Below, one piece after another: positions 18,820-48,826 of a DNA stretch of 64,000 nt (its first letter is position 1; each line of letters starts with the position of its first letter). Source of the DNA: Bacteroidales bacterium (GTDB lineage Bacteria; Bacteroidota; Bacteroidia; Bacteroidales; WCHB1-69); contig JAFXSR010000033.1 of the NCBI GenBank assembly GCA_017525505.1, positions 43,531 through 107,530 of the forward strand, given 5' to 3'. A model generated the notes under the pieces. It had not been told where the DNA came from. It did no database searches and saw only the letters and a program-made list of their open reading frames with translations. Both the position numbers and the translations under genes were made by a program.

Positions 18820-19341
18820 ATGAAAAAAATAGCTATTACGGGAGGTATAGGAACAGGTAAAACCTATATCTCCAAGAAGTTTGTGCAGATGGGTATTCCG
18901 GTGTTCTATGCGGACGAGGAAGCTAAAAAATGCTACGAGGACAAGGAAATTGTCGATACGATCCGTTCTTATTTTGGCACAGAGGTTTTTACAGAGGGAA
19001 GACTGGATTTCAGAAAGATGGCACGCTGTGTGTTCCAGAATCCCCAAAAGAGGGAAATTATCAACAAGATGATTCATCCCAGGGTGATGGGAATGTTCGA
19101 TGAGTGGGCCGAGGAGCAACATGCCCCGTCGGTGATGCTGGAATCCGCTATTGTGTACGAGAACGAATTGGAGAAGTTCTTCGATATGGTGATTGTGGTG
19201 GATGCCCCGCTGGAGGTGCGTTTGGAGCGTATCAAAAAACGGAACCCCAGCCTTACGGAGAAGGAAATCACCGACCGTATCAACGCACAGATGCCACAGG
19301 AGGAGAAATGCAGGCGGGCGGATATGGTAATCAAAAATTAG
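18820..19341 (+). CDS. coaE: Dephospho-CoA kinase
   Basis: The P-loop is MKKIAITGGIGTGKTYISKKF. It is 173 aa. Confidence 0.85.
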   Translation: MKKIAITGGIGTGKTYISKKFVQMGIPVFYADEEAKKCYEDKEIVDTIRSYFGTEVFTEGRLDFRKMARCVFQNPQKREIINKMIHPRVMGMFDEWAEEQHAPSVMLESAIVYENELEKFFDMVIVVDAPLEVRLERIKKRNPSLTEKEITDRINAQMPQEEKCRRADMVIKN

Positions 19342-19500
19342 TTGACAGTTGAAAACTGAAAGTTAATTACTCTTCTATTAGAATCGATGAAGGAGCGAGA
19401 GCAGAGACAAAGCACCCTTTGGCTATCCTGAGCGAGGAGGAGAGGGAGACGTAGCCTCCATCGGTAGCCGAAGGGCGGGGTAGTGACGCAAACATTACGG
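19342..19500 (+). repeat. Family-A composite element, copy 1 (word leader plus about 135 bp GC-hairpin module)
   Basis: gttgacagttgaaaactgaaagttaatt is followed by ...gaaggagcgagag...gagcgaggaggag...gtagcctcc...agccgaagggcggggtagtgacgcaaa. I aligned it by eye at about 80% identity to the reverse complement of 44741-44920. Confidence 0.75.
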
Positions 19501-26659: not shown

Positions 26660-26723
26660 AAAAAAATGTGCTAATTACAGGCCTTTGGCATTGAGTTTTC
26701 AGCTATGAGCCATGAGCTTTTTG

Positions 26724-27058
26724 TTTTATGAATTGATTCGCGGCGTCAGCACCAACGTACTTACCCCTCAATGTAGTAGGTGATCAGTCGTGCTGAAAGC
26801 ACGCAATCCTATTAACCCCGCATAAGCGTAGCGCAATGTGGGGTATGCGGCAAACAGCTCTGCTCCTGCGTGCCGTAGGTACGCCACATTGGAGAGGATG
26901 TAGCGTGCTTTCAGCACGCAGACAGGACTTGTCATTGTACGCCCCACACAACAAGTTGTGCGGGGTTAATAGGATATCGTGCCTTTGGCACGCCTCTTTG
27001 TCTTTCAAATTGTTTAATGAATTGATTCGCGGCGTCAACACCAACGTACTCATCCCTC
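26724..27058. repeat. Composite palindromic GC-hairpin element flanked by 45 bp direct repeats
   Basis: The direct repeat tgaattgattcgcggcgtcaRcaccaacgtact occurs at 26727-26770 and 27015-27058. The core has a 17 bp perfect inverted repeat: atcctattaaccccgca (about 26806) and tgcggggttaataggat (about 26961). Nested hairpins include cgtgctgaaagcacg, ccccgcataagcgtagcgcaatgtgggg, gcgtgccgtaggtacgc, gcgtgctttcagcacgc, ccccacacaacaagttgtgcgggg and cgtgcctttggcacg. Confidence 0.8.
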
Positions 27059-27160
27059 ACATCTCCATGCTCACATCTCCATGCTCACATCTCCATGCTC
27101 ACCGCTCACTGCCCACCGCTCATCGCTCATCGCTCACCGCCCACCCCTCATAGCTCATAG
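27056..27160. repeat. Word array (CTCACATCTCCATG x3, then CTCAYYGCY words)
   Basis: Three exact 14-mers are followed by ctcaccgctcactgcccaccgctcatcgctcatcgctcaccgcccacccctcatagctcatagc. The complementary words agctatgagccatgagc lie at about 26700-26716, on the other side of the hairpin element. Confidence 0.85.
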
Positions 27161-27201
27161 CAAAATTTACTAATTAAACGATTTGCTAATCAAAAAAATT
27201 G

Positions 27202-35329: not shown

Positions 35330-35500
35330 CTCACGCCATCCTTTCGTGGCAGGGTAATGTCATCATCGGGGCAAACGTCACCCGTGCCGCGAGGGTGTAT
35401 ATGTGCGGTCCTGTCCCAGGGGCTTTGCCCCTGTCTGTAGTCTGGTCGGCCCTACGGGCCTTGTCTCGTCACAGTAGTACATGCGTGATGATGGACGAGT
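35330..35500 (+). repeat. Family-B GC-hairpin element, copy 1
   Basis: ctttcgtggcagg...cacccgtgccgcgagggtg...caggggctttgcccctg tctgtagtctggtc ggccctacgggcc is colinear with 37316-37480. Confidence 0.75.
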
Positions 35501-36495: not shown

Positions 36496-36503
36496 TAATT
36501 TTG
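36496..36503 (+). promoter_or_regulatory. TAnnTTTG promoter box of the capsule (upxY) operon
   Basis: TAATTTTG is followed by a roughly 175 nt leader with several hairpins (ctttgc...gcaaag, atgggg...ccccat, cctgc...gcagg). Confidence 0.5.
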
Positions 36504-36686: not shown

Positions 36687-37211
36687 ATGACAGATGTGGG
36701 AAAGGCATGGTTTGCAATGAAAGTGTTTCAAAACAAGGTTTTTGAAATCGAAAGCTATTTGCAAGCCAAGGACACCGAGACTTATTTTCCGGTACGCTAT
36801 GAGGAGAAAACGATAGGTGGGGTGAAGAAAACGGTGCGCAAGCCGGTCATCACATCTCTGATTTTCTTCCGAACTTATTCCGAAAATCTGGCAGAAATTG
36901 AGAAGGACTTGAGTTCCAAGGTGGCCTTGTATCGCTATAGGAAATCACATCAGGTGGCTGTCATCCCCGATCGGGAGATGGATATCTTCAAGATGGTGAC
37001 CTCGGTGAGCAACAACAACTGGGATTATGTGGATGTGGCGGCCATGAGCTTCCGTCCCGAGGACCGTGTGCGGGTGATCGATGGGGAATTCAAGGGTGCC
37101 GAGGGCTATATCAAGCGCATCAAGGGCAACCGCCGACTCGTAGTTGCCATTGAGGGCGTCGTTGCCGTCGCCACTGCGTACATCCCGTCGTGCTACTTGG
37201 AGAAGTTGTGA
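36687..37211 (+). CDS. UpxY-family (NusG-like) capsule-operon transcription antiterminator
   Basis: The NGN-like N-terminus reads WFAMKVFQNKVFEIESYLQ...YFPV. The KOW motif is RVRVIDGEFKGAEGYIKRIKGNRRLVV. It is the first gene of the polysaccharide locus. Confidence 0.8.
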   Translation: MTDVGKAWFAMKVFQNKVFEIESYLQAKDTETYFPVRYEEKTIGGVKKTVRKPVITSLIFFRTYSENLAEIEKDLSSKVALYRYRKSHQVAVIPDREMDIFKMVTSVSNNNWDYVDVAAMSFRPEDRVRVIDGEFKGAEGYIKRIKGNRRLVVAIEGVVAVATAYIPSCYLEKL

Positions 37212-37315
37212 TAGGTTTGGGTTGCTCTCACCCCACACTTACGTGCGGGGTTACTGAGATATCGCCTCTTCGAGGCTCAAGCGGAACGGCTTCGCCGTAA
37301 TGTATATATCACAGT

Positions 37316-37480
37316 GTCACCCTTTCGCGGCAGGCACAATACAACATCAGGGCAAGAGTACCCCGTGCCGCGAGGATATATGTGGCATCCCGTACCAGGG
37401 GTTTCACCCCTGTCTGTAGTCTGGTTGGCCCTACGGGCCTCGACTCGCCCGGCAATGCATGTGTGCGGGAAGATAGGCAC
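37316..37480 (+). repeat. Family-B GC-hairpin element, copy 2
   Basis: cctttcgcggcagg...ccccgtgccgcgagg...caggggtttcacccctg tctgtagtctggtt ggccctacgggcc. Further hairpins sit upstream at 37215-37300 (ccccacacttacgtgcgggg, gcctcttcgaggc). Confidence 0.75.
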
Positions 37481-37550
37481 ACGGAGGCAAAAAGCTATGG
37501 CGCTGCGTGCGGTGGCCATGCCGATTGGCGAGGAGCCTGTGCGGTGGCAC

Positions 37551-37640
37551 AACAGTTGACAGTTAACAGTTGACAGTTAACAGTTGACAATTGACAGTTG
37601 ACAATTGACAGTTGAAAACTGAAAACTGAAAGTTGACAGG
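37551..37640 (+). repeat. Word array (GTTGACAG / TTAACAG / TTGAAAAC / TGAAAG)
   Basis: The sequence is gttgacagttaacagttgacagttaacagttgacaattgacagttgacaattgacagttgaaaactgaaaactgaaagttgacagg. Confidence 0.9.
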
Positions 37641-37660
37641 ATTCAAGTTTCAGGTTACAG

Positions 37661-37861
37661 TTCAAAATCCATAATCCATAATCCAAAATCTCTTCTAACC
37701 TTCTCACCCTCTCACCTTCCTAACCCTCCTCACCTTCCTAACCCTCCTCACCTTCCTAACCCTCCTCACCTTCCTCACCTTCCTAACCCTCCTAACCCTC
37801 CTAACCTTTACCCCCTCCTAACCCTCCTAACTTTAACCCCCCCCTACCCCCACCCCCTCCC
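37661..37861 (+). repeat. 201-nt G-free, C-rich word array (CCTYCTMAC units) upstream of wza
   Basis: I read it base by base and found no G between 37661 and 37861. Only one G (37862) occurs before the wza ATG. The units read ccttcctaaccctcctcac... Confidence 0.9.
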
Positions 37862-37883
37862 GAAATAAAAAAAACACCATATC

Positions 37884-38714
37884 ATGAAAAAACACCTATT
37901 CTTTATCATTGCCGCAGTGATGCTGCTGGCATCGTGCAACACCACGAAGAAGATCACTTATTTTCAGGATATCCAGAATTATACGGACACGACCAAGTCA
38001 GTGGCGCCTCCGGCTCCGGAAATCCGCTTGCGTCCTGATGACAAGATTTCAGTCATCGTCAACAGCAGAGACCCCGAGTTGACGAATATGTTCAATTTGG
38101 CCTATGTGACGCGTACATTGGGAAGTACAAGTGAAAACATTTCAACGGGAACACAGCATGGAACCTCCGGCTATGTTGTCAAAAGAGACGGTACCATCGA
38201 TTTTCCTGTATTGGGTTCGATAATAGCCGCGGGCAAAACCCGCGAAGAGCTCTCGGCTTATATCAAAAACGAGTTGATTAGCCAGGGTTTGGTCAGCGAT
38301 CCTATTGTGACGGTGGAGTTTATCAACCTGCAGTTTTCCGTAATGGGTGAGGTGAAAAAGCCAGGTTCTTACAATATTAACCGAGATTACATTACCCTTC
38401 TGGATGCTTTGTCCATGGCTGGAGATATGACCATCAGCGGTAAGCGTGAGAATGTGCTGGTATTACGCCCGGACTCTATAGGCAAGCTCACTGCTTATAC
38501 GGTGGATATGCGTTCTTTTGCCGAGGTCCAGAATTCACCGGTTTATTATATCCATCAGAACGATTACATCTATGTGGAGCCTAACAGGAAGAAAGCCAAC
38601 GAGTCAACAGTCAATGCCAACACGGTTCAGTCCGCCGCGTTCTGGATTTCCGTCGCTTCTTTCCTCGCCTCTATCGCCTCCACGATTTCCGTCATCGTGA
38701 CGAGAGCAAAATAA
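37884..38714 (+). CDS. wza: Polysaccharide export outer-membrane lipoprotein (Wza-like)
   Basis: The lipobox is LLASCNT. The Poly_export motif region reads LRPDDKISVIV...DGTIDFPVLGSI.AAGKT..EL, followed by an SLBB-like segment. Confidence 0.85.
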   Translation: MKKHLFFIIAAVMLLASCNTTKKITYFQDIQNYTDTTKSVAPPAPEIRLRPDDKISVIVNSRDPELTNMFNLAYVTRTLGSTSENISTGTQHGTSGYVVKRDGTIDFPVLGSIIAAGKTREELSAYIKNELISQGLVSDPIVTVEFINLQFSVMGEVKKPGSYNINRDYITLLDALSMAGDMTISGKRENVLVLRPDSIGKLTAYTVDMRSFAEVQNSPVYYIHQNDYIYVEPNRKKANESTVNANTVQSAAFWISVASFLASIASTISVIVTRAK

Positions 38715-38804: not shown

Positions 38805-41330
38805 ATGCAAGAAAATCAAAACGCAACAGCGAACAACATTGAACAGCAAGGAGAGCAGGCCATAGACTTGAAGGCGATATTTTACCTTTGCCTTTCCAAT
38901 TGGTACTGGTTTCTGATTTCAGTCATCTTGTGTCTGGCCATAGCCACTTTTTATCTGAAGAAAACCATCCCGGTCTATACCCGTTCAGCCAAAGTGCTGG
39001 TGAAATCCGACAACAAGGGTCACTCAGCCATGAATGTCAGCGATTTCTCGGACCTGGGGCTTTTCAGCAGTGGGGTCAGCATCAACAATGAGCTGCTCAC
39101 CATCCAATCCCTCGACAATGTGGAGGAGGTGGTGCTCCGTTTGCAATTGGATAAAAACTACACTTCCGACGGTCTGCTTCATCCTGTTTTGTTGTACGGA
39201 GAAAATTTGCCCGTCAAGGTGGAGATGCCCGGCATTGACGATCAGGCGGTTCTTTCCTTTGATATTAAACTCCAGGGAACCAAGTTCACCCTTTCCGAAT
39301 TCATGTTGGGTAAGGAAGAGAAAACGGGCTCCGTTACCGCCAAGCTGGGCGATACTGTTGCCACACCGGTGGGTGTTCTTTGTGTGGTTCCCACAGAGTT
39401 TTTCAATCCCAAAAGTCAGTACAAAACCATTCACGTACAGCGTTCCTCTATTGGAAGTACGGCACGAACCTACGTTGGCAAGCTTACGGTGGCGTTGGCG
39501 GCCAAACAGACCGATGTGATGAGCTTGACGGTGAATGACATTTCCAAACAAAGGGCCGACGATTTTATCAATATGCTCATTGCCGTGTATAATGGCAATT
39601 GGCTGAAAGACAAGAACCAGGTAATGGTGAGTACTTCCATGTTTATCAATGACCGTTTGCAGATCATTGAAAAGGAATTGGGCTCGGTGGACGATGACAT
39701 TTCCTCATACAAAAGTGCCAATCTCATGCCCGATGTGGGAGCGGTATCCAGCATCTGGTTGAATCAGAACACGGTTACGACCAACCGAATTCAGGATTTG
39801 AACAACCAGATTGCCATGACCCGCTATGTGCGCAACTATCTGATCAATATGAAGAAGAAAGACCAGCTTCTGCCGGTAAACTCGGGTATTGGCAGTGGAC
39901 AGATCGAAGGTCAGTTAGCGGAATATAACGCCATGATGCTGAAAAGAAACAACCTGGTGGCCCATAGTAGCGAGCAAAGTCCTTTGGTGCTCGAAATGGA
40001 TGACAAGCTGGCCACTATGCGCCAGGCCATCGTTGCCACACTCGACAGCCAGTTGGAAAGCCTCAACACCCTCTTGCAGAGTTTCCAAGGCACTGGACGA
40101 CAAATCAACTCCCGCCTGGCTGCCAGCCCGGGACAGGCCAAGTACTTGTTGTCGGTGGAACGTCAGCAGAAGGTGAAGGAGTCGCTGTATTTGTTCCTCT
40201 TGCAGAAACGTGAGGAAAACGAGTTGTCGCAGGCTTTTACCGCTTACAATACCCGTGTGATTGAGAAACCCAATGGCTCTCCCAATCCTACCAAGCCCAA
40301 AAAGTCTCTCATCCGTTTGGTTGCTGTCATCCTGGGTTTGGCTATTCCGGGCTTTATCCTCTTTATGATCGATTACCTGAACACCACCGTGCGTAGCCGC
40401 AAGGATTTGGAGAAACTGAGTGTGCCGCTCGTTGGCGAGATTCCGTTGGTCTATAATCCGGAGGATGCCAAGAAAAACAGAAAGAAGAAAAAAGAGATAC
40501 GGCATAATGGACAGAGCAATCCTGAGGGTTTCGCCAAGACCGTGGTGGTGAAACATGGCAGCCGTAATGTCATTAACGAGGCTTTCCGTGTGTTCCGTAC
40601 CAATCTGGAGTTCATGACCAAGAACAAGGAGAACAATGTCTTTATGTTCACCTCCTTCAATCCGGGTTCCGGTAAGTCTTTTATCGCCATCAACTCGGCC
40701 ATCAGCTTGGCCATCAAAAAGCGCAAAGTGCTGGTTATCGACGGTGACTTGCGCCATGCCTCCCTGTCCGCCTACATTTTCTCCCCAAAGAAGGGTATCG
40801 CCAATTATTTGGGTCGCCAGGAGGAGGATGTTCATAAATTGATTATCCAGAGTGATGATTATCCTTGTCTGAGCTACCTGCCCGTGGGTACCATTCCGCC
40901 TAACCCCACTGAGTTGCTAGAGGATGAGCGTTTCGGTGAGTTAATCAAAATATTGAAGCAGGAGTATGACTATGTGATGATTGACTGTCCGCCTATCGAC
41001 ATTGTGGCCGACCCGCAGATTATCAACAAGTATGTAGATCGTACCGTCTTCGTGGTGCGTGCCGGTTTGATGGAGCGCAGCCTTATTCCCGAACTGGAGA
41101 AATTATACACGCAGCACAAATATGTCAACTTGTGCATGTTGCTCAACGGCACTACCAGCTCCGATGGCCGCTATGGCTACCGTTACGGTTACCGCTATGG
41201 CTATCGTTATGGTTACCGCTATGGCTACAAGTACGGCTATGGCTATCACAATGCCTACGGCAAGCACAGCGCCTACGGTGGGTATTATCATGAGGATGAT
41301 GAGACGGAGGAGGGGGGAAGTGGAAAGTAG
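38805..41330 (+). CDS. wzc: Polysaccharide co-polymerase / tyrosine autokinase (Wzc-like)
   Basis: It has a Wzz-type N-terminal TM helix and periplasmic coiled coil. The Walker A is TSFNPGSGKSFIAINSA and the Walker B is VMIDCPP. The C-terminal Tyr cluster is GRYGYRYGYRYGYRYGYRYGYKYGYGYHNAYGKHSAYGGYY. Confidence 0.9.
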   Translation: MQENQNATANNIEQQGEQAIDLKAIFYLCLSNWYWFLISVILCLAIATFYLKKTIPVYTRSAKVLVKSDNKGHSAMNVSDFSDLGLFSSGVSINNELLTIQSLDNVEEVVLRLQLDKNYTSDGLLHPVLLYGENLPVKVEMPGIDDQAVLSFDIKLQGTKFTLSEFMLGKEEKTGSVTAKLGDTVATPVGVLCVVPTEFFNPKSQYKTIHVQRSSIGSTARTYVGKLTVALAAKQTDVMSLTVNDISKQRADDFINMLIAVYNGNWLKDKNQVMVSTSMFINDRLQIIEKELGSVDDDISSYKSANLMPDVGAVSSIWLNQNTVTTNRIQDLNNQIAMTRYVRNYLINMKKKDQLLPVNSGIGSGQIEGQLAEYNAMMLKRNNLVAHSSEQSPLVLEMDDKLATMRQAIVATLDSQLESLNTLLQSFQGTGRQINSRLAASPGQAKYLLSVERQQKVKESLYLFLLQKREENELSQAFTAYNTRVIEKPNGSPNPTKPKKSLIRLVAVILGLAIPGFILFMIDYLNTTVRSRKDLEKLSVPLVGEIPLVYNPEDAKKNRKKKKEIRHNGQSNPEGFAKTVVVKHGSRNVINEAFRVFRTNLEFMTKNKENNVFMFTSFNPGSGKSFIAINSAISLAIKKRKVLVIDGDLRHASLSAYIFSPKKGIANYLGRQEEDVHKLIIQSDDYPCLSYLPVGTIPPNPTELLEDERFGELIKILKQEYDYVMIDCPPIDIVADPQIINKYVDRTVFVVRAGLMERSLIPELEKLYTQHKYVNLCMLLNGTTSSDGRYGYRYGYRYGYRYGYRYGYKYGYGYHNAYGKHSAYGGYYHEDDETEEGGSGK

Positions 41331-41383
41331 ATAGTAGAAAGTATAAAGTATAAAGTAGATAGTAGAAAGTAGAAAGTAGATGG
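41328..41383 (+). repeat. 7-nt word array AGTAKAW x8
   Basis: The array agtagat agtagaa agtataa agtataa agtagat agtagaa agtagaa agtagat begins within the wzc stop codon. Confidence 0.9.
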
Positions 41384-41384
41384 G

Positions 41385-41771
41385 TTAGGGGGTGGATAGT
41401 TGATTGTTCAATTTTTTGCGAAGGCCTGAGAGCATTTTTGCTATTTCAGTTATCTGTGGACGCAATTCGTTGAGTTGCGCTTCAGTTATGTAAGCCAGGT
41501 CCGCTGCTGTTTGTAGTTCGCTAAAGACTTCCATTAACGAGCCAAATGATATCTCAAGAAAGTGTATTTTTTCTTTGACAGATTGGCGTCCGCTTCCTTC
41601 CGCAAGATTAGCTGTAATGGAAATAGCTGCTCTACGCACCTGATTTCCAAGTCCATAACGCTCTTCAATAGGGAATATACGCTGCAAGCGATAAACATCT
41701 GCAACCAAAGATCTACATTTCTTATAAACTTCTAACCTTTCAAAAGCAAAACTTCTCATAGAATTCATCAT
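41385..41771 (-). CDS. Four-helix-bundle protein (23S rRNA intervening-sequence / Avd family)
   Basis: FERLEVYKKCRSLVADVYRL...FPIEERYGLGNQVRRAAISITANLAEGSGRQSVKEKIHFLEISFGSLMEV is the family signature. The start is moved to MMNSMRSF. It is antisense to the capsule operon. Confidence 0.85.
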   Translation of the reverse strand: MMNSMRSFAFERLEVYKKCRSLVADVYRLQRIFPIEERYGLGNQVRRAAISITANLAEGSGRQSVKEKIHFLEISFGSLMEVFSELQTAADLAYITEAQLNELRPQITEIAKMLSGLRKKLNNQLSTP

Positions 41772-41825
41772 ATACCAAAATGTAATAAACCAAACTATAA
41801 ACGAAATAAAACAAAAAAAATTATA

Positions 41826-41893
41826 AACCATAAACAAAAAAATCTATAAACCATAAACTATAAACTATATACTATATACTATATACTTTACAA
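41826..41893 (+). repeat. 7-nt word array (CCATAAA / CTATAAA / CTATATA), approximate complement of 41328-41383
   Basis: The sequence is aaccataaacaaaaaaatctataaaccataaactataaactatatactatatactatatactttacaac. Confidence 0.8.
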
Positions 41894-41894
41894 C

Positions 41895-42572
41895 ATGTTA
41901 TTCTCCAAACCAATCAACACCTACCTCAAAGGCTTCACCGACCATCACTCCCATATATTGCCCGGAGTGGATGATGGAGTGAAGAAGATGGAGGTATCCC
42001 TGCAGGTGCTGGAAAAGTACGAGCAGTTGGGTATCGCTGAGGTGTGGTGTACCCCGCATACCATGGAAGATATTCCCAATACTACGGAAGGTCTCAAAAG
42101 CCGTTTTGCGGAGCTGTGCGAGGCCTACAAGGGTCCCATCAAGCTGCATCTGGCTTCTGAATATATGATGGACGGCCTTTTCGAGGAACGTCTGGAAGAG
42201 GGTAATCTGCTGACTTTGGGCGAGGAGGGCAACCAGCTTTTGGTGGAGACCTCTTATTTCACTCCGCCCATCGATATGGACACTATCTTGCGCCGCATCC
42301 GTCAGAAGGGTTATTTCCCAGTGCTGGCTCATCCCGAGCGTTATATATACATGGATAAAGAACAGTATCATGAACTCAAGGACGAGGGTATCCGTTTTCA
42401 GCTCAACCTATCTTCCATTGCCGGTGCTTACGGTCCCGATGTCAAAGCCAAGGCCCTCTGGCTCCTCAAGAAACAATACTACGACCTTGCCGGCTCCGAT
42501 CTCCACTCGCTGAGAAACGTTTCCTTCTGGGAGGCACGAGCTCCGCGGGCCCTGAGGAAGTTTTTGGGATAG
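41895..42572 (+). CDS. PHP-family protein-tyrosine phosphatase (CpsB/YwqE-like)
   Basis: The N-terminal metal motif is DHHSHILPGVDDG, with LAHPERY later. It sits next to the Wzc-like kinase. Confidence 0.85.
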   Translation: MLFSKPINTYLKGFTDHHSHILPGVDDGVKKMEVSLQVLEKYEQLGIAEVWCTPHTMEDIPNTTEGLKSRFAELCEAYKGPIKLHLASEYMMDGLFEERLEEGNLLTLGEEGNQLLVETSYFTPPIDMDTILRRIRQKGYFPVLAHPERYIYMDKEQYHELKDEGIRFQLNLSSIAGAYGPDVKAKALWLLKKQYYDLAGSDLHSLRNVSFWEARAPRALRKFLG

Positions 42573-42632
42573 AAGGATAGAAGGTTAGAAAGGTTAGAAA
42601 GGTTAGGAGGGTTAGGAGGGTTAGGAGGGTTA
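42573..42632 (+). repeat. 8-9-nt word array GGWTAGRAR x8 (part of a 98 nt C-free tract, 42553-42650)
   Basis: The array ggatagaa ggatagaa ggttagaaa ggttagaaa ggttaggag x4 begins at the phosphatase stop. It supplies the last codons of the antisense gene. Confidence 0.9.
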
Positions 42633-43004
42633 GGAGGGTAAAGTGTTTAGCTTTTTTTTGAAAGATGCTCTTAATCCTATTAGCATTTTAGATACATATT
42701 CGAATTCAGGCTTCATTTTGTTTACATTACTGATCGAGATATAATTCAAATCAACAGCTATTAGTAATTGACAATAGCATTCCATTAAAGAACCATAAGC
42801 AATTTCTATAAAGTGGATTTTTTCTTTAACTGATGTTCTACCACTTCCTTCTGCAATATTTGATGGAACAGAAACTATTGACCTTCTGATTTGATCGCAT
42901 AACGCATACCGTTCTATAGACGGAAATTCTTTTAAGGTATCATACACTGAAACAACAAGCTTTTTGGATACTTGCCAAACTTCTAAACTTTCAAACGAGA
43001 ACAT
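42630..43004 (-). CDS. Four-helix-bundle protein (23S rRNA intervening-sequence / Avd family), second copy
   Basis: The family signature is FESLEVWQVSKKLVVSVYDTLKEFPSIERYALCDQIRRSIVSVPSNIAEGSGRTSVKEKIHFIEIAYGSLMEC. Its own TATTTTTG box is at 43040-43047 (minus). Confidence 0.85.
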   Translation of the reverse strand: MFSFESLEVWQVSKKLVVSVYDTLKEFPSIERYALCDQIRRSIVSVPSNIAEGSGRTSVKEKIHFIEIAYGSLMECYCQLLIAVDLNYISISNVNKMKPEFEYVSKMLIGLRASFKKKLNTLPS

Positions 43005-43039: not shown

Positions 43040-43047
43040 CAAAAATA
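43040..43047 (-). promoter_or_regulatory. TAnnTTTG promoter box for the second four-helix-bundle gene
   Basis: The reverse complement of caaaaata is TATTTTTG, 36 nt upstream of the ATG at 43004. Confidence 0.5.
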
Positions 43048-43065
43048 CAAAAAAATAAAAATAAC

Positions 43066-43212
43066 CCTCCTAACCCTCCTAACCTTTCTAACCTTCCTAA
43101 CCTTCCTAACCCTCCTAACCCTCCTAACCCTCCTAACCTTCCTAACCTTCCTAACCTTCCTAACCCTCCTAACCCTCCTAACCCTCCTAACCTTCCTAAC
43201 CCTCCTAACCCA
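43066..43212 (+). repeat. 9-nt word array CCTYCTAAC x about 17, inside a 204-nt G-free tract (43040-43243)
   Basis: The units read ccctcctaaccctcctaacctttctaaccttcctaacc.... It is the reverse complement of the arrays at 42573-42632, 44607-44730 and 45825-45912. There is no G until the ugd ATG. Confidence 0.9.
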
Positions 43213-43241
43213 TAAACACTAAACTATAAACATCAAACAAT

Positions 43242-44609
43242 ATGAAAATCTCCGTCGCAGGTACCGGCTATGTGGGTATGAGCATCGCCACTCTACTCGC
43301 TCAACATAATGAAGTAACCGCTGTGGACGTGGTTCCAGAGCGTGTTGACATGGTGAACCATAAAAAGTCTCCTATCCAGGATGACTATATTGAAGACTTT
43401 TTGGCCCACAAACCCTTGACTATCAGTGCTACCCTTGACCAGGAGGCGGGCTACCGCGAGGCCGACTTTGTGGTCATTGCGGCCCCTACCAATTACGACC
43501 CCCAGAAGAATTTCTTCGACACCTCGGCAGTAGAGGCGGTCATTGATGCCGTGCTGAAGGTGAACCCCGATGCGGTTATGGTCATCAAGAGCACCATTCC
43601 GGTGGGATATACCCGTTCGCTGTATGTCAAATATTACAGGCAAGGGGCTAAGAAATTCAACCTGTTGTTCAGCCCCGAGTTCCTGCGCGAGAGCAAGGCC
43701 CTGTACGATAACCTTTATCCCTCTCGTATCATTGTGGGTACCCCGAAAATGATGAAGGGCAAGGACTATGAGGAGGAAAACGAAGCTATCAAGGCACTCA
43801 CCGATATCGACTGGATCAGCCAGAAAGCCCATCAGTTTGCCGGTCTTCTTGTGGAAGGCGCCATCGGCCCCTCTCCAGACACCTGCTCACCCTCTAACCC
43901 TCTCACGCCCTCTCAACCCAACAAAGGCATTTCCGTCCTCTTCATGGGCATGAAGGAAGCCGAGGCGGTGAAGCTTTTCGCCAACACTTACCTGGCTCTC
44001 CGTGTAAGCTATTTTAATGAGTTAGATACCTATGCCGAGGTAAAAGGTCTTGACCCTCAGTCTATTATAGAAGGGGTTGGGCTCGATCCCCGTATTGGTT
44101 CGCATTACAACAACCCCAGTTTCGGTTATGGCGGCTACTGTTTGCCCAAGGATACCAAGCAGCTGCTGGCCAACTATGCCGATGTGCCTCAGAACATGAT
44201 GAGCGCCATCGTGGAAAGCAACAGAACCCGCAAGGACTTTATTGCCGACCAAGTGCTCAAGATGGCAGGTTATTACGCTTATAGCGAGAATAATCAATTC
44301 AAAAATCAGGGTTCAGAATTCAAAGTTCCCACCATTGGTGTCTTTAGATTGACGATGAAATCTAACAGCGACAATTTCCGTCAGTCGGCCATCCAGGGCA
44401 TCATGAAGCGCATCAAGGCCAAGGGGGCCAACGTTATCATCTACGAGCCCACTTTGGAGAACGGTACCATGTTTTTTGGCAGCCTTATTATCAACGACCT
44501 TGTCCAGTTCAAAACCCAGAGCCAGGCTATCATCGCCAACCGTTACGATGCCTGCCTGGATGATGTGAAAGAGAAGGTTTATACGAGGGATATTTTCAAA
44601 AGGGATTAG
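43242..44609 (+). CDS. ugd: UDP-glucose 6-dehydrogenase
   Basis: The Rossmann N-terminus is [21 protein letters not shown]. The catalytic Cys context is [18 protein letters not shown], with [28 protein letters not shown] nearby. Confidence 0.9.
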
Positions 44610-44730
44610 GTTAGAGAGGTTAGGAAGGTTAGGAAGGTTAGAGGGTGAGAAGGTGAGAAGGTTAGAAAGGTTAGGAAGGTTAGAAAGGTTAGGAAGGTTA
44701 GGAAGGTTAGGAAGGTTAGAAGAGATTATG
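44607..44730 (+). repeat. Word array GGTTAGRAR / GGTGAGAA (part of a 154 nt C-free tract, 44598-44751)
   Basis: ggttagagaggttaggaaggttaggaaggttagagggtgagaaggtgagaaggttagaaagg... begins at the ugd stop codon. Confidence 0.9.
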
Positions 44731-44740
44731 GTTTATATTT

Positions 44741-44920
44741 GCGTCACTACCCCGGCCTTCGGCCACCCGTTGGAGGCTACGCCTCCTTTCTCCTCCTCGC
44801 TCGGGAAAGCTCAATCAAGCTTGGCTTTCCTCTCGCTCCTTCGTCGAATCTAAAAGAAGGGGAATTAACTTTCAGTTTTCAGTTTTCAACTGTCAACTGT
44901 CAATTATCAACTATCAACTA
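44741..44920 (-). repeat. Family-A composite element, copy 2 (inverted), including its word leader
   Basis: tttgcgtcactaccccggccttcggccacccgttggaggctacgcctcc...ctcctcgctc...ctctcgctccttcgtcgaatc...aattaactttcagttttcagttttcaactgtcaac is the reverse complement of the copy-1 pattern. Confidence 0.75.
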
Positions 44921-44922
44921 AT

Positions 44923-45813
44923 ATGAAAGGCATCGTTCTCGCCGGAGGTTCCGGCACCAGGTTATATCCTATTACCAAGGGTGTGAGCAAACAGTTGCTG
45001 CCCATTTACGATAAACCTATGGTATATTATCCTATCAGTGCGTTGATGCTGGCGGGGATTAGGGATATTCTGATTATCAGCACCCCTTATGATTTGCCCG
45101 GTTTCAAACGGCTTTTGGGTGATGGCAGCGACTACGGTGTGCATTTCGAGTATGCCGAGCAGCCCAGTCCCGACGGTTTGGCTCAGGCTTTCATCATTGG
45201 CGAGAAGTTCATCGGTGACGATTGTGCCTGCCTGGTGTTGGGTGACAATATATTCTATGGTAACGGCTTTACGACATTGTTGCTCAATGCCGTAAAAGAC
45301 GCGGAGCACAACAAAAAGGCTACCGTTTTTGGCTACTGGGTGGCCGATCCCGAACGCTACGGTGTGGCGGAGTTTGACAAGCAGGGCAATTGCCTGAGTA
45401 TCGAGGAGAAACCGAAAGAACCTAAGAGCAACTATGCCGTGGTGGGGCTCTACTTCTATCCCAACAAGGTGGTGAATGTGGCCAAGACCATCAAACCTTC
45501 CGCGCGTGGCGAGTTGGAGATTACCACCGTCAACCAGCGTTTTCTGGAAGATGGAGAGTTGAAGGTGCAGGTCTTTGGTCGTGGTTTTGCCTGGCTGGAC
45601 ACGGGTACGCATGATTCATTGGCCGAGGCTTCCATTTTTGTGGAGACCATCGAGAAACGTACAGGATTGAAAATCGCCTGCCTTGAGGGCATCGCCTACC
45701 GCAACGGCTGGATCAGCGAGGAAAAGATGCGTCAGCTGGCCCAGCCGATGCTGAAGAACCAATACGGCCAGTACCTGCTGAAGGTGATTGACGAGATGAG
45801 CAGTGAGCGGTGA
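44923..45813 (+). CDS. rfbA: Glucose-1-phosphate thymidylyltransferase
   Basis: [37 protein letters not shown] is the canonical RmlA N-terminus. Confidence 0.95.
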
Positions 45814-45955
45814 GCGGTGAGGCCTGAGGTTAGGAGGGTTAGGAGGGTTAGGAGGGTTAGGAAGGTTAGGAAGGTTAGGAAGGTTAGGAAGGTTAGGAAG
45901 GTTAGGAGGTTACACGGTTAGAAGGTTAGAAGGTGAAAGGGGTTTAGGAGGTTTA
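45814..45955 (+). repeat. Word array (GTGAGCG, GGTTAGGAR x12, GGTTAGAA, GGTTTAGGA)
   Basis: The words start inside the last rfbA codons (agtgagcggtgagcggtgagg). A C-free stretch spans 45825-45912. Confidence 0.9.
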
Positions 45956-45990
45956 GATGGCAAGTGCTTCCTCAAGGATGTGAATGCTAC
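45956..45990 (+). pseudogene. Orphan 35-bp fragment of a nucleotide-sugar dehydrogenase gene (DGKCFLKDVNA)
   Basis: gatggcaagtgcttcctcaaggatgtgaatgct matches ggtggcaaatgcttccctaaggatgtgaacgct at 47846-47878 at 28 of 33 positions. The differences are mostly at third codon positions. Confidence 0.6.
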
Positions 45991-46007
45991 TAATATATAA
46001 TATTAGA

Positions 46008-47675
46008 ATGAAAGGTATACAAAATACTATTACAGGAAATTTTAGCTCAATTATCAGCAATAGCCGGCGTTTTGTTGTCCCGAAATTCCAAAGAGACTAT
46101 TCGTGGAGTAGTGAGCAGTGGGATGATCTGTGGCAAGATATTGAGACGATGATAGAGGAGCATGATGAACATTACATGGGTTATCTTGTTCTTCAGACTC
46201 AAGACGATAAGCTTTTTTACATAATAGATGGACAGCAGCGCTTTACTACGGTATTGATTCTTATTTATGCTGCAATAAAGTGCGTGCAGAGACAGATTGC
46301 CCAGGGTGTGGATGTTGAGGACAATAGGCGTCGATGCGAATCTTTGAAGAATTTGTACATAGGGAAAGAGGATCCTGTAACATTAGACTATGACAACCTC
46401 TTAACTTTGAACAGGAATAATAACGCTTATTTCTGTGACTATATCTTGAAATTGGGTGATTTGAAGGCACGAAATCTTACAGCAACAGAAAAACTGATGC
46501 GTAGCTGCTTTGAGTATTATGAGCAAAGGCTTATTGGCAAGTTCAATAGTGGAAAAGAGTATGCTTCTTTCATCCAGACAGTTGCAGATGGTTTGCATTT
46601 TACGCAAATCGTGGTCAATGATGAGATGAATGCATTCCGTGTATTTGAGACTCTGAATGCACGTGGCGTTCAATTGTCATCTGCAGACTTGTTAAAGAAT
46701 TATTTGTTCTCTAAAGTTGATAGCGAAACCACTCATAGTAGCCGTATAGATACGTTAGAGCGCAAATGGAGCAAGCTCACCGATAATATTAAGGCCGAGA
46801 AGCTTCCAGAGTTTCTTCGCTATTATTGGAATATGCAGCACAAAACAATTCGTGCCAATGCCGTATATAAAACTATTCGTCAGGAGATTAAGGAAGATAA
46901 GCAAGTGTTCCTTTTGTTGGATGACCTCATCTCTTATAGTGATATTTATATGGCATTGACTGATGAGAATGATGAAATGTGGACAGATTCGGAGGTTAAG
47001 GATAATGTGGCTCTGCTTAATCTTTTCCGCCTGAAACAGCCTTTCTCATTGCTTATGGCTGCCAAGAAGAGTTTGACGGACAATGAGTTCAAACGGGTGC
47101 TGAAGACTGTTATCATGGTGTGTTTTCGCTATAATGTAATCTGCGATAGAAATCCCAATGACCAAGAAACTCCATTTAATGCGCTTGCTCAATCTATAAG
47201 CCATAATAATCTTGTTGATTTGAAGGAGCTTTCATCGATCATGGTGGATGATGCTGAGTTCAAGAGTGCATTTAAAGAAAAGACTTTCCCTTATAACTCG
47301 CGTAATGCCAAAGTTATGAGGTACATATTGGGAAAGATAGAGCATTTCAAAGGCTCTGCCCAGGCAGTTCGTTTTGATGATGAGAACGCATCTATAGAAC
47401 ATGTTTATCCCCAGAATCCTTCTGAAGAGTGGGATTTGGACGAATCTAAGATGCAACGTTTTGTTTTTCGACTTGGAAACATCTGCCTTTTGGAAAAAGG
47501 ATTGAATAGGGATTTGCAAAATGCAAGTTTCGCAGAAAAGGTTTCAGTTTATAAAAAGTCATCATTTTATTATGCTCAAAAAATATCATCAGAATATAAT
47601 GAATGGAATGATAGCGCTATAATAAAGCTTCAGACCGAGATGGCAAACGCTGCTGTATCTATTTGGCGAGTATAA
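46008..47675 (+). CDS. DUF262 + DUF1524 protein (GmrSD-like type IV restriction / nucleotide-targeting defence enzyme)
   Basis: The N-terminal DUF262 motifs are FVVPKFQRDYSWSSEQWDDLWQDI and IIDGQQRFTT. The C-terminal His-Me/DUF1524-like motifs are IEHVYPQNP...GNICLLEKGLNRDLQNASFAEK. The start is moved to MKGIQNT. Confidence 0.8.
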   Translation: MKGIQNTITGNFSSIISNSRRFVVPKFQRDYSWSSEQWDDLWQDIETMIEEHDEHYMGYLVLQTQDDKLFYIIDGQQRFTTVLILIYAAIKCVQRQIAQGVDVEDNRRRCESLKNLYIGKEDPVTLDYDNLLTLNRNNNAYFCDYILKLGDLKARNLTATEKLMRSCFEYYEQRLIGKFNSGKEYASFIQTVADGLHFTQIVVNDEMNAFRVFETLNARGVQLSSADLLKNYLFSKVDSETTHSSRIDTLERKWSKLTDNIKAEKLPEFLRYYWNMQHKTIRANAVYKTIRQEIKEDKQVFLLLDDLISYSDIYMALTDENDEMWTDSEVKDNVALLNLFRLKQPFSLLMAAKKSLTDNEFKRVLKTVIMVCFRYNVICDRNPNDQETPFNALAQSISHNNLVDLKELSSIMVDDAEFKSAFKEKTFPYNSRNAKVMRYILGKIEHFKGSAQAVRFDDENASIEHVYPQNPSEEWDLDESKMQRFVFRLGNICLLEKGLNRDLQNASFAEKVSVYKKSSFYYAQKISSEYNEWNDSAIIKLQTEMANAAVSIWRV

Positions 47676-47691
47676 TTGAATAAAGATAATT

Positions 47692-47974
47692 ATGATCAAC
47701 GTCGGAATCATCGGCTGCGGCTTCGTGGGTGGAGCCCTCAAGGAGTGGTTGGAACACAACAATCCTGAATGCAAGCTTTTCATCAGCGACCCCGCCAAGG
47801 GCTACACACACCCATGTTCCGGGTCCCGACGGCAAGTACGGTTATGGTGGCAAATGCTTCCCTAAGGATGTGAACGCTTTCGCCAAGATGACGGAAGGCA
47901 CATCCCTTGGAACTCTTCTGGAACACCTCCACGAGCTTAATGTCCATTTCCGTGGGGAGGAAGAGCATATCTGA
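47692..47974 (+). pseudogene. Remnant of a nucleotide-sugar dehydrogenase gene (internal deletion plus frameshift)
   Basis: Frame 1 reads MINVGIIGCGFVGGALKEWLEHNNPECKLFISDPAKGY, a Rossmann N-terminus, and then becomes junk. Frame 2 from about 47815 reads VPGPDGKYGYGGKCFPKDVNAFAK..., the catalytic-Cys motif. Hundreds of codons are missing between the two. Confidence 0.75.
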
Positions 47975-48017
47975 AACCTATAAAAAGCGTACTAGAACAC
48001 AAATATAGCAAAACATT

Positions 48018-48446
48018 ATGGGTGTTTACGAAGAACAAATAGTGCCAATCAAGATTTCGCGCTTGGCAGAATATGTGTCCAGGAGGAAGCATATTGCTCT
48101 GGAGGATGCCCTTGTGTACATATATTCCAATCCTATGTACGACCGGTTATATGACGAAGGGGCCAAGTGGTGGTATCTTAGTACTGAAGCGCTTTATGAT
48201 GAGTTTGAGACGGCACGCAATACCGAAAGTAAGAGCGTAACGCATGAGGAATTTGAGTTCTACACTTATTGTTTGGAAAAATATGCTTTGTCAAAAGGTC
48301 TTACAGGTCTTCAAACTCTTGCACTACTGAAGCGTTACGGTGCAGATGATTATCTGATTGACCATTATGGTCTTCTTCATACACAAGGCACCGATTATGT
48401 AATTGATGAGTTAGATCGCTATATTCAGAGGAGGAAAAGAGGATGA
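48018..48446 (+). CDS. DUF3791-domain protein (candidate partner/antitoxin)
   Basis: The C-terminal half EFYTYCLEKYALSKGLTGLQTLALLKRYGADDYLIDHYGLLHTQGTDYVIDELDRYI matches my memory of the DUF3791 consensus. Its stop overlaps the next start (ATGA). Confidence 0.7.
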   Translation: MGVYEEQIVPIKISRLAEYVSRRKHIALEDALVYIYSNPMYDRLYDEGAKWWYLSTEALYDEFETARNTESKSVTHEEFEFYTYCLEKYALSKGLTGLQTLALLKRYGADDYLIDHYGLLHTQGTDYVIDELDRYIQRRKRG

Positions 48447-48826
48447 TAGTGTATCACGGTTCAAATGTTAGGGTTCGCAAGCCCAGTTTGCGTATGAGCA
48501 GGAAGAAGACCGATTTTGGACGCGGCTTTTATACAACAACCCAGAAGGAGCAGGCCGAGCACTGGACCTCCATCAAGATAGATAGGGCAAAAACAGGCCG
48601 CAGAGTCGTGTCGGTTTTTGAGATTGACGACGAACTTCTAACTAATCCTGAACTGAAAATTCGCGAGTTTCATGGCCCTGATGAGGACTGGTTGAATTTC
48701 GTGGTTGACAGTCGTAAAGGTGTGGAGCACGACTACGATCTTGTGTTTGGACCCGTAGCCAATGACAAAGTGTTCACCGTGGTGAACCTTTATGAAAGCG
48801 GTGTTCTAGTATTTTGTAACATCTAA
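48443..48826 (+). CDS. DUF3990-domain protein, possible ADP-ribosyltransferase-fold enzyme; 3' end altered by IS insertion
   Basis: MIVYHGSNVRVRKPSL...TDFGRGFYTTTQKEQAEHW has an HGS...G.G.Y pattern. The present C-terminus ...ESGVLVFCNI* reads into the IS630 inverted repeat. Confidence 0.7.
   Translation: MIVYHGSNVRVRKPSLRMSRKKTDFGRGFYTTTQKEQAEHWTSIKIDRAKTGRRVVSVFEIDDELLTNPELKIREFHGPDEDWLNFVVDSRKGVEHDYDLVFGPVANDKVFTVVNLYESGVLVFCNI

Follow-up and report, generated by a model that had tools for sequence, protein, structure and literature searches.

Repeats that are co-transcribed in operon spacers are familiar from the Proteobacteria, where REP/BIME, ERIC and Correia-type elements form hairpins and affect mRNA stability, termination and processing. 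Entry sites for Rho are described by a C-over-G skew extending over more than 78 nt, by dense and regularly spaced YC dimers, and by a scarcity of G (PMC6144790). In Coxiella burnetii, the intervening sequence (IVS) of the 23S rRNA is a stem-loop that carries an S23p open reading frame (ORF) and is excised by RNase III (PMC4990558). The NusG paralogue UpxY acts at pause sites in the leader upstream of upxY, and the passages on UpxY in the two sources consulted describe no action on Rho (PMC7819879, PMC11213015). Here we analyzed a stretch of 64,000 nucleotides, referred to as the window, from a Bacteroidales bacterium (assembly GCA_017525505.1, contig JAFXSR010000033.1, positions 43,531 to 107,530 of the forward strand). 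The window contains the capsule locus upxY-wza-wzc-cpsB-ugd-rmlA, in which two long tracts devoid of G precede wza and ugd. A first-pass annotation of this DNA had read these tracts as candidate Rho utilization (rut) sites opposed by UpxY. We find that they are the pyrimidine face of 9-bp minisatellites within a lineage-wide system of mosaic arrays in ruminant-gut Bacteroidales.

The first tract lies in the upxY-wza spacer (37661-37861, plus strand) and spans 201 nt without any G, with a C content of 52%. The second precedes ugd (43040-43243, plus strand) and spans 204 nt without any G; its C content is 41% overall and 50% in the array core. These are the two longest G-free runs of the window, the third in rank being a run of 93 nt at 41804-41896, and shuffled sequence (n = 200) gives a longest G-free run of no more than 50 nt, with a mean of 36 nt. 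The boundaries proposed in the first-pass annotation are accurate for both tracts: a single G, at 37862, stands before the wza ATG, and the first G past 43039 is that of the ugd ATG itself. Its description of the tracts as built from CCTYCTAAC-type words was correct but understated, as Tandem Repeats Finder (TRF) shows true tandem arrays of period 9. The wza core minisatellite (37695-37831, plus strand) has the unit CTAACCTTC, or the 18-nt unit ACCTTCCTAACCCTCCTC, in 15.6 copies, and the ugd core minisatellite (43062-43211, plus strand) has the unit TAACCCTCC in 16.7 copies with 94% matches. Both pyrimidine arrays amount to about 16 contiguous copies of TAACCYTCC (78-94% matches), and the tracts lack G because the repeat unit is itself G-free. 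Their head-to-tail units without spacers are those of a minisatellite, or variable-number tandem repeat (VNTR); a clustered regularly interspaced short palindromic repeat (CRISPR) array was ruled out, as the units are contiguous and have no spacers between them. C-free tracts with the complementary unit were resolved by TRF as AGGTTAGRA arrays. Among the C-free tracts that had been listed previously, 42553-42650 and 45825-45912 are exact, whereas the third, which starts at 44598, ends at 44741 and not at 44751, there being a C at 44742. A further C-free tract of 103 nt (41306-41408) had been missed.

The wza tract is the final module of a mosaic that runs (ACAGTTG)9, (TGAAAAC)n, (AATCCAT)n and then (CCTAACCYT)n. 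TRF places the upstream modules of this wza-leader mosaic, (ACAGTTG)9, (TGAAAAC)2.7 and (AATCCAT)3.6, at 37552-37690 on the plus strand. Array repeats recur at several spacers of the locus and in both orientations. The ugd-rmlA spacer is filled by an inverted copy of the wza-leader mosaic: a C-free (AGGTTAGRA)13 array after the ugd stop codon (44598-44741, plus strand) holds the wza-tract modules inverted, and the (TTTCAGT)/(TCAACTR) arrays before the rmlA ATG (44862-44920, plus strand) are an inverted copy of 37582-37634 (91% over 53 nt). The rmlA stop codon is followed by a C-free (AGGTTAGGA)12 array (45825-45960, plus strand; C-free run 45825-45912). Before cpsB, the plus-strand G-free tract at 41804-41896 is made of (AAACTAT)/(CTATATA) units, is 59% A and 15% C, and ends at the G of the cpsB ATG. 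At one end the arrays set in just past the upstream stop codon, or at a GC-rich element, and at the other they stop about 20-30 nt short of the ATG. The module order of the wza leader reappears at unrelated loci of other metagenome-assembled genomes (MAGs); upstream of a YggS-like gene (locus L029) the identity is 75% over 195 nt. Fixed termini of the kind found in miniature inverted-repeat transposable elements (MITEs) were not seen in the mosaics that share this module order at unrelated loci, although target-site duplications were not formally searched for.

Loci of relatives were collected by scanning one genome per species for three units of the 9-mer repeat, which yielded 56 loci. Approximately 26 of these derive from Bacteroidales MAGs of rumen or gut, a single genome often contributing several loci; there the 9-mer array stands beside many other modules, arrays of period 7-9 such as cctgtaat, ttgacaat, gaaaact, ttcaaaa, atccata and gtgctaat. 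A metagenome scan for at least six units returned 4 contigs only, all from unrelated organisms. Contigs that are 99.9% identical to the window match its structure over 10 kb in all but one respect: their ugd array is shorter by 54 bp (six units), which leaves a tract of 150 nt, with the caveat that short-read assemblies can collapse repeats. The ugd array is thus copy-variable between close strains, as a VNTR is, and the matched lengths of the two tracts (201 and 204 nt), to which the earlier annotation had drawn attention, are therefore a coincidence. In the orthologous locus of the sister species (L059/L023), where the genes have about 85% nucleotide identity, the G-free stretch before wza is just 63 nt long. 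A purine/pyrimidine 9-mer dyad instead occupies the space between wza and wzc, where the window has a spacer of 90 nt, and the cpsB-ugd spacer is built from other, G-containing units (TGAGCAA/GCTCATA). Across three diverged relatives an array is kept in nearly every spacer of the locus, while its sequence, length and position turn over.

The arrays are polar with respect to gene ends. A census of the window and 26 rumen or gut Bacteroidales MAG loci (255 kb, with genes crudely taken as the longest ORFs) found 244 arrays of period 6-10, of which 88% are intergenic although about 79% of the sequence is coding. Within 120 nt before a start codon, the sense strand of the array has more C than G in 54 of 66 cases (p = 2e-7), and 29 of 67 such arrays are G-free. 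After stop codons the sense strand has more G than C in 68 of 97 arrays (p = 9e-5). The respective polarity persists in 40 of 51 arrays before starts and 46 of 65 after stops when the CTAACC/GGTTAG family, which had been used to find the loci, is left out. In each of the four gene-orientation classes, purines tend to prevail in the left half of a spacer and pyrimidines in the right half; co-directional (++) and convergent spacers show this skew strongly, divergent and minus-strand co-directional spacers less so. The aggregate base composition of all intergenic halves gives a weak signal, and the polarity is clear once the arrays are analyzed. G-free tracts of 49-151 nt lie directly upstream of the genes for def (peptide deformylase), a YggS-like protein, nadA, an AhpC/TSA lipoprotein, a flavodiiron-type protein and metH. 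A G-free run of at least 20 nt abuts the ATG in 31 of 168 genes, compared with 0 of 181 internal ATG controls. Searches of the available literature on tandem repeats in Bacteroidales, IVS proteins and Rho sites found no description of these mosaic arrays.

Given an excess of C before starts and of G after stops, RNA entering a gene, whether sense or antisense, carries a G-poor pyrimidine stretch. The reading that we favor, and to which we give about an even chance, is that the arrays are generic, fast-evolving, translation-gated polar spacers or insulators that are not specific to UpxY. We infer a mechanism in which selection on RNA would filter the orientation of the arrays. A G-free leader can contain no ATG, GTG or TTG, no Shine-Dalgarno-like GGAGG, and no G-C or G-U pairs. 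Such leaders would suit the ribosomes of the Bacteroidia, which are blind to Shine-Dalgarno sequences. According to the passages on initiation in two reports, initiation in the Bacteroidia is Shine-Dalgarno-blind and is tuned by structure and by upstream adenines, with AUG depleted near starts (PMC7797042, PMC13000453), and these traits are likewise supported by a third (PMC6847099). In the three G-free leaders of the window, no alternative start codon occurs, and at most one G separates the tract from the G of the real ATG; an A is found at position -3 of wza, cpsB, ugd and rmlA. When left untranslated, in antisense transcripts, in read-through, or in read-out from the intervening-sequence protein (IVP) genes described below, G-free pyrimidine RNA would make an ideal entry site for Rho.

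The same arrays could instead be neutral or selfish repeats that originate by slippage, spread by recombination and have no function, in which case their polarity would reflect the purging of orientations that harm neighboring genes. The fast turnover of unit, length and position and the many unrelated unit families are consistent with this idea, as is the module order common to unrelated loci, which suggests copying, and a general survey has reported a high density of short tandem repeats in the Bacteroidota (PMC12699852). Neutrality does not sit well with strong polarity at both gene ends, even in convergent spacers that have no start codon nearby, nor with the retention of an array in nearly every locus spacer of three diverged relatives despite the change in sequence. 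We consider a lack of function possible but unlikely.

The claim that the tracts are dedicated rut sites in the capsule operon, passed only by RNA polymerase carrying the locus's own UpxY, finds support in several of its parts. The locus is headed by a UpxY-family NusG paralogue as stated (NF033644, 144 bits against a cut-off of 100), and NusG paralogues such as RfaH counter Rho. The tracts agree with the published rut descriptors: C minus G is at least 35% in 78-nt windows across 37654-37915 and 43040-43250, which are among just four such plus-strand regions in the window, and every 9-nt unit of both tracts holds CC and TC dimers. The wza tract is solitary, with no complementary array upstream in the same transcript, and is predicted to be unpaired in both the minimum free energy and the centroid folds of 37205-37900, whereas the ugd tract is predicted to be partly paired with 42553-42650. 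Judged by composition, both would be excellent Rho entry sites. The argument that C-free tracts after genes would give C-rich RNA to antisense transcripts also generalizes, since the excess of G over C in 68 of 97 arrays after stops makes the antisense RNA across them C-rich. In addition, all tracts of at least 88 nt in the window lie in the UpxY locus, and the sister species retains its shorter G-free stretch before wza.

The specific link to UpxY, however, is unsupported. The first-pass annotation had named as a refutation an even spread of equally long G-free tracts through loci that lack a NusG paralogue, and the relatives largely bear this out: G-free tracts of 49-151 nt precede def, nadA, metH and other genes that have no NusG paralogue nearby, which argues against a UpxY-specific device. 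Among the 56 repeat-bearing loci, a UpxY homologue occurs in just the orthologous one. Even there the arrays are not conserved, as position, unit and length all differ, with the main 9-mer dyad between wza and wzc and G-containing units before ugd. Further points against a dedicated site are the six-unit difference in the ugd tract among near-identical strains and the position of that tract in the arm of a long predicted stem, which leaves it not free over its full length. The UpxY site documented in the passages cited above is, moreover, the set of leader pauses upstream of upxY. We regard UpxY-controlled rut sites as very unlikely. Rho loading is a plausible consequence of the base composition of the arrays, and UpxY need not be involved in it.

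Two minus-strand genes that had been overlooked in this locus lie between purine and pyrimidine arrays (41385-41831 and 42630-43004). Both belong to PF05635/TIGR02436, the family of four-helix-bundle, or 23S rRNA intervening-sequence, proteins, and both are antisense to the operon. IVP gene 1 (41385-41831) lies between wzc and cpsB, and is flanked on the left by the C-free tract that follows the wzc stop codon (41306-41408, plus strand) and contains (AAGTAGA)9. Its true start is probably near 41759, on the basis of its alignment to IVP gene 2. IVP gene 2 (42630-43004; PF05635, E = 4e-36) occupies the cpsB-ugd spacer. Here the order is the cpsB stop codon, directly followed by a C-free purine array of GAAGGTTAG/GGTTAGGAGGG units (42553-42650, plus strand), the antisense IVP gene 2, its candidate promoter with a Bacteroidetes-type -7 box, TATTTTTG (43040-43047, minus strand), about 36 nt upstream of its ATG and identified by pattern match only, then the pyrimidine array and the ugd ATG. 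The purine array and the ugd tract are the 5' and 3' arms, respectively, of a predicted stem of about 70 bp that has IVP gene 2 in its loop. This architecture, like that of a 23S rRNA IVS, would give the ugd tract a second role. Both strands of the spacer fold strongly, with z = -11.3 for the plus strand and -7.2 for the minus strand. The arms are unequal (about 75 nt against 150-204 nt), and therefore more than 100 nt of the ugd tract is single-stranded in any register. The spacer of IVP gene 1 was rejected as a significant stem, with fold z-scores of -0.1 and -0.8.

Complementarity between flanks was scored for the IVP genes of this lineage. With a PF05635 ORF between complementary arms, IVP gene 2 scores 45 and is IVS-like, and IVP gene 1 is so more weakly, at 18.5; the location differs from that of the rRNA element, as IVP gene 2 sits in an mRNA operon between cpsB and ugd and not in 23S rRNA. 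The remaining scores are 43.5, 23 and 7.5 in L067, 21.5 in L074, 36 in L076 and 26.5 in L075. Seven of the eight genes are thus bracketed by complementary arrays (18.5-45). The highest score among 68 ordinary spacers is 17, and IVP genes of the Prevotella type reach 6.5-9.5. The sister-species locus has no IVP genes. In a third relative, L067, three slots are occupied by IVP genes, of which two are sense-oriented, and the array units are again different. The pairing of cpsB with an antisense IVP gene is kept in several relatives, with protein identities of 65-85%. The IVP proteins are bAvd-like, and the closest solved structure by sequence is 2gsc (XCC0516). A genome-wide tie between arrays and IVP genes was rejected, as none of the 56 loci with the 9-mer pattern (0/56) has a PF05635 homologue.

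These observations raise the alternative that hairpins come first: the purine and pyrimidine arrays would form a long RNA (or DNA) stem, and cleavage by RNase III would separate the cistrons and excise the antisense IVP region. The predicted cpsB-ugd stem on both strands and the bracketing of seven of the eight IVP genes support it, as does the sharing of a unit family by the two arms within a spacer when families differ from spacer to spacer. By analogy with the S23p-bearing IVS of Coxiella, which RNase III excises (PMC4990558), the cpsB-ugd stem is probably an RNase III substrate. As an explanation of the arrays in general, however, pairing falls short. Complementarity within ordinary spacers is not raised over that between spacers (median 8 compared with 7.5, p = 0.22), and the proposition that all intergenic spacers are purine/pyrimidine hairpins was rejected on this result. 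The wza tract has no partner, the wzc-cpsB fold is not significant, and the excess length of the ugd tract stays unpaired. We think it improbable that stem formation is the primary role of the arrays.

Several points weigh against the polar spacers that we favor. A single repeat family served to select the loci, arrays of one locus cannot be counted as independent, and the gene calls are crude. Within the window, all seven of the long tracts (at least 88 nt) fall inside the UpxY locus, and there may be a local enrichment of long tracts in capsule loci. The pyrimidine array at 27032-27165 lies upstream of a promoter-like box and is maybe outside the mRNA of its gene. The translation logic also leaves unexplained the C content of 40-50% and the reach of the arrays to -230, far past the initiation region. 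Nor does it account for the G-rich polarity after stops, which a reading based on Rho or antisense RNA, or one at the level of DNA, alone explains.

At the DNA level, G-rich non-template arrays downstream of genes could promote G-quadruplexes or R-loops, or shared arrays could recombine capsule-gene cassettes. The purine arrays do contain GG and GGG runs 2-6 nt apart, some arrays lie outside likely transcripts, and the same arrays are present in both orientations at several spacers of the locus, with the long arrays of the window concentrated in this polysaccharide locus. Many arrays (AAACTAT, ACAGTTG, TTCAAAA) nevertheless have no G-quadruplex potential, and the polarity follows gene ends and not the direction of replication. 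A role of this kind appears to us highly improbable. Polar spacers could also be taken further, and we regard the following extension as quite unlikely: the minisatellites would constitute a genome-wide "gene-boundary code", in which RNA is G-free and C-rich on entering genes and C-free and G-rich on leaving them, and IVP genes between complementary arrays would be mRNA-borne counterparts of rRNA intervening sequences. Under such a code, the entering RNA would serve as a landing pad free of start codons if translated and as a Rho entry site if untranslated.

The locus begins with the UpxY-family gene (36687-37211), followed by wza (37884-38714), wzc (38805-41330), the gene for a cpsB-type phosphatase (41895-42572), ugd (43242-44609) and rmlA (44923-45813), all on the plus strand. 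No UpxZ-sized ORF follows the upxY gene. A candidate operon promoter with a TAATTTTG -7 box (36496-36503, plus strand) lies about 185 nt upstream of upxY and is a pattern match only; the search for the Bacteroidetes TAnnTTTG pattern yields candidate -7 boxes only. A scan for sigma-70 promoters and terminators gave counts near the shuffle expectation, with a model unsuited to Bacteroidetes. Searches against Rfam found no family at the gathering or E <= 1 thresholds, with the exception of a tRNA elsewhere and one chance-level match, and no rRNA in the window. A 12/24-nt tandem repeat in the 3' end of wzc (41168-41228) gives the protein a Tyr/Gly-rich tail (YGYRYGY...), as expected of a BY-kinase with its C-terminal cluster of tyrosines. 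Behind rmlA come a GmrSD nuclease gene and DUF3791/DUF3990 genes, and then the housekeeping genes purB, ruvB and recA. The GmrSD-type restriction nuclease gene and the DUF3791/DUF3990 pair (45984-48826) stand right behind rmlA as a small defence-like island that ends the polysaccharide locus. Elsewhere in the window, a plus-strand gene (1744-12246) encodes a 3500-residue protein with multiple fibronectin type III domains and a chitobiase/hexosaminidase C-terminal domain; it contains an internal C-free run of 60 nt (2146-2205).

GC-rich repeat elements of about 50-160 nt are dispersed in the spacers beside the arrays: 44735-44891 matches 19340-19495 (inverted), 37318-37447 matches 35337-35468, and 27010-27059 matches 26721-26770, with further elements in L004, L024 and L059. 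One of them has a conserved hairpin (gggtgcccgaagggcggggtagtgac in MAGs) with a terminator-like stem at 44772-44786 and no match in Rfam. A 105-amino-acid ORF (26836-27153, plus strand) consists mostly of a GC-rich repeat element (26721-27059) and, 3' of it, pyrimidine arrays (27032-27165), and is almost certainly spurious. The spacer that holds these arrays separates the divergent mutS and PMT_2 genes and has a TATTTTTG box downstream of them, at about 27200.

Some of the sequences recovered with the 9-mer repeat belong to other lineages. Nine loci (L006, L008, L010, L019, L026, L028, L036, L047 and L048), from Nitrosomonas, Thauera, Thiobacillus and other proteobacterial MAGs, mostly betaproteobacteria, share a conserved element unrelated to the Bacteroidales arrays. 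In it, (CCTAACCTT)3 and (AAGGTTAGG)3 lie as inverted repeats on either side of a GC-rich core that measures about 100 nt, further GGTTAGGAA/GGTTGGGAA boxes lie outside, and the whole resembles the termini of a mobile element or an origin of the iteron type. In L022 (Proteobacteria MAG SZAS-76, at about 4827 on the reverse strand), one spacer of a 99-repeat CRISPR array is unusually long, at 44 nt, and is made of (CCTAACCTT)n; some invader with this repeat has therefore been sampled. In unrelated phyla, the unit (CCCTCCTAA)n gives rise to G-free runs as long as 167 nt, which often stop shortly before an ATG. The unit was found in L042 (Patescibacteria), L007 (a cyanobacterium), L015, L054 and L056 (Acidobacteriota) and L070-L073 (metagenome contigs with a GC content of 51-56%). 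Its complement, TTAGGAGGG, comprises a stop codon and a perfect Shine-Dalgarno core, so that the sense RNA mimics the anti-Shine-Dalgarno tail of 16S rRNA.

If the polarity of the Bacteroidales arrays is functional, it would provide a simple, sequence-independent means of gene insulation and of transcription-translation coupling in a phylum without Shine-Dalgarno-guided initiation, and it would supply defined natural substrates with which to study Bacteroidota Rho. On the practical side, the arrays are markers of very high variability, can mislead short-read assembly and give rise to spurious ORFs, 26836-27153 among them. The IVP family is very widespread (4,669 relatives in one search), and the array-bracketed genes provide a lead on its function that links the rRNA-IVS context to mRNA spacers.

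Among known systems, the tracts share with rut sites and Rho-dependent leader attenuators of E. coli and Salmonella a stretch of more than 78 nt of C-rich, G-poor, YC-rich, unstructured and untranslated RNA ahead of a gene (PMC6144790). Rut sites are irregular sequences, however, whereas the tracts described here are minisatellites and are candidate Rho sites. They also precede many unrelated genes, vary in length by strain and, in half of the cases, have a complementary partner. The IVP element resembles the Coxiella 23S rRNA IVS in that a PF05635 (S23p/IVP) gene occupies the loop of a long stem and the whole is embedded in a longer host transcript. It differs in its host, which is a capsule operon mRNA spacer in place of helix 45 of 23S rRNA, in its arms, which are built from tandem arrays, and in its gene, which stands in either orientation and apparently has its own (candidate) promoter. 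REP/BIME, ERIC and Correia elements are dispersed copies of a fixed palindromic unit, unlike the expandable, strand-asymmetric tandem arrays of this lineage. The nearest described system is BrickBuilt, a minisatellite within a MITE in Porphyromonas gingivalis (PMC4596501), which is likewise specific to the Bacteroidales, strictly intergenic, tandem without spacers, present at many loci and copy-variable. In BrickBuilt there is a single unit, of 23 nt, accompanied by defined leader and tail subunits and by small inverted ends, whereas the arrays described here combine many families of 7-9 nt units in mosaics, have no evident termini, and are polar relative to gene ends.

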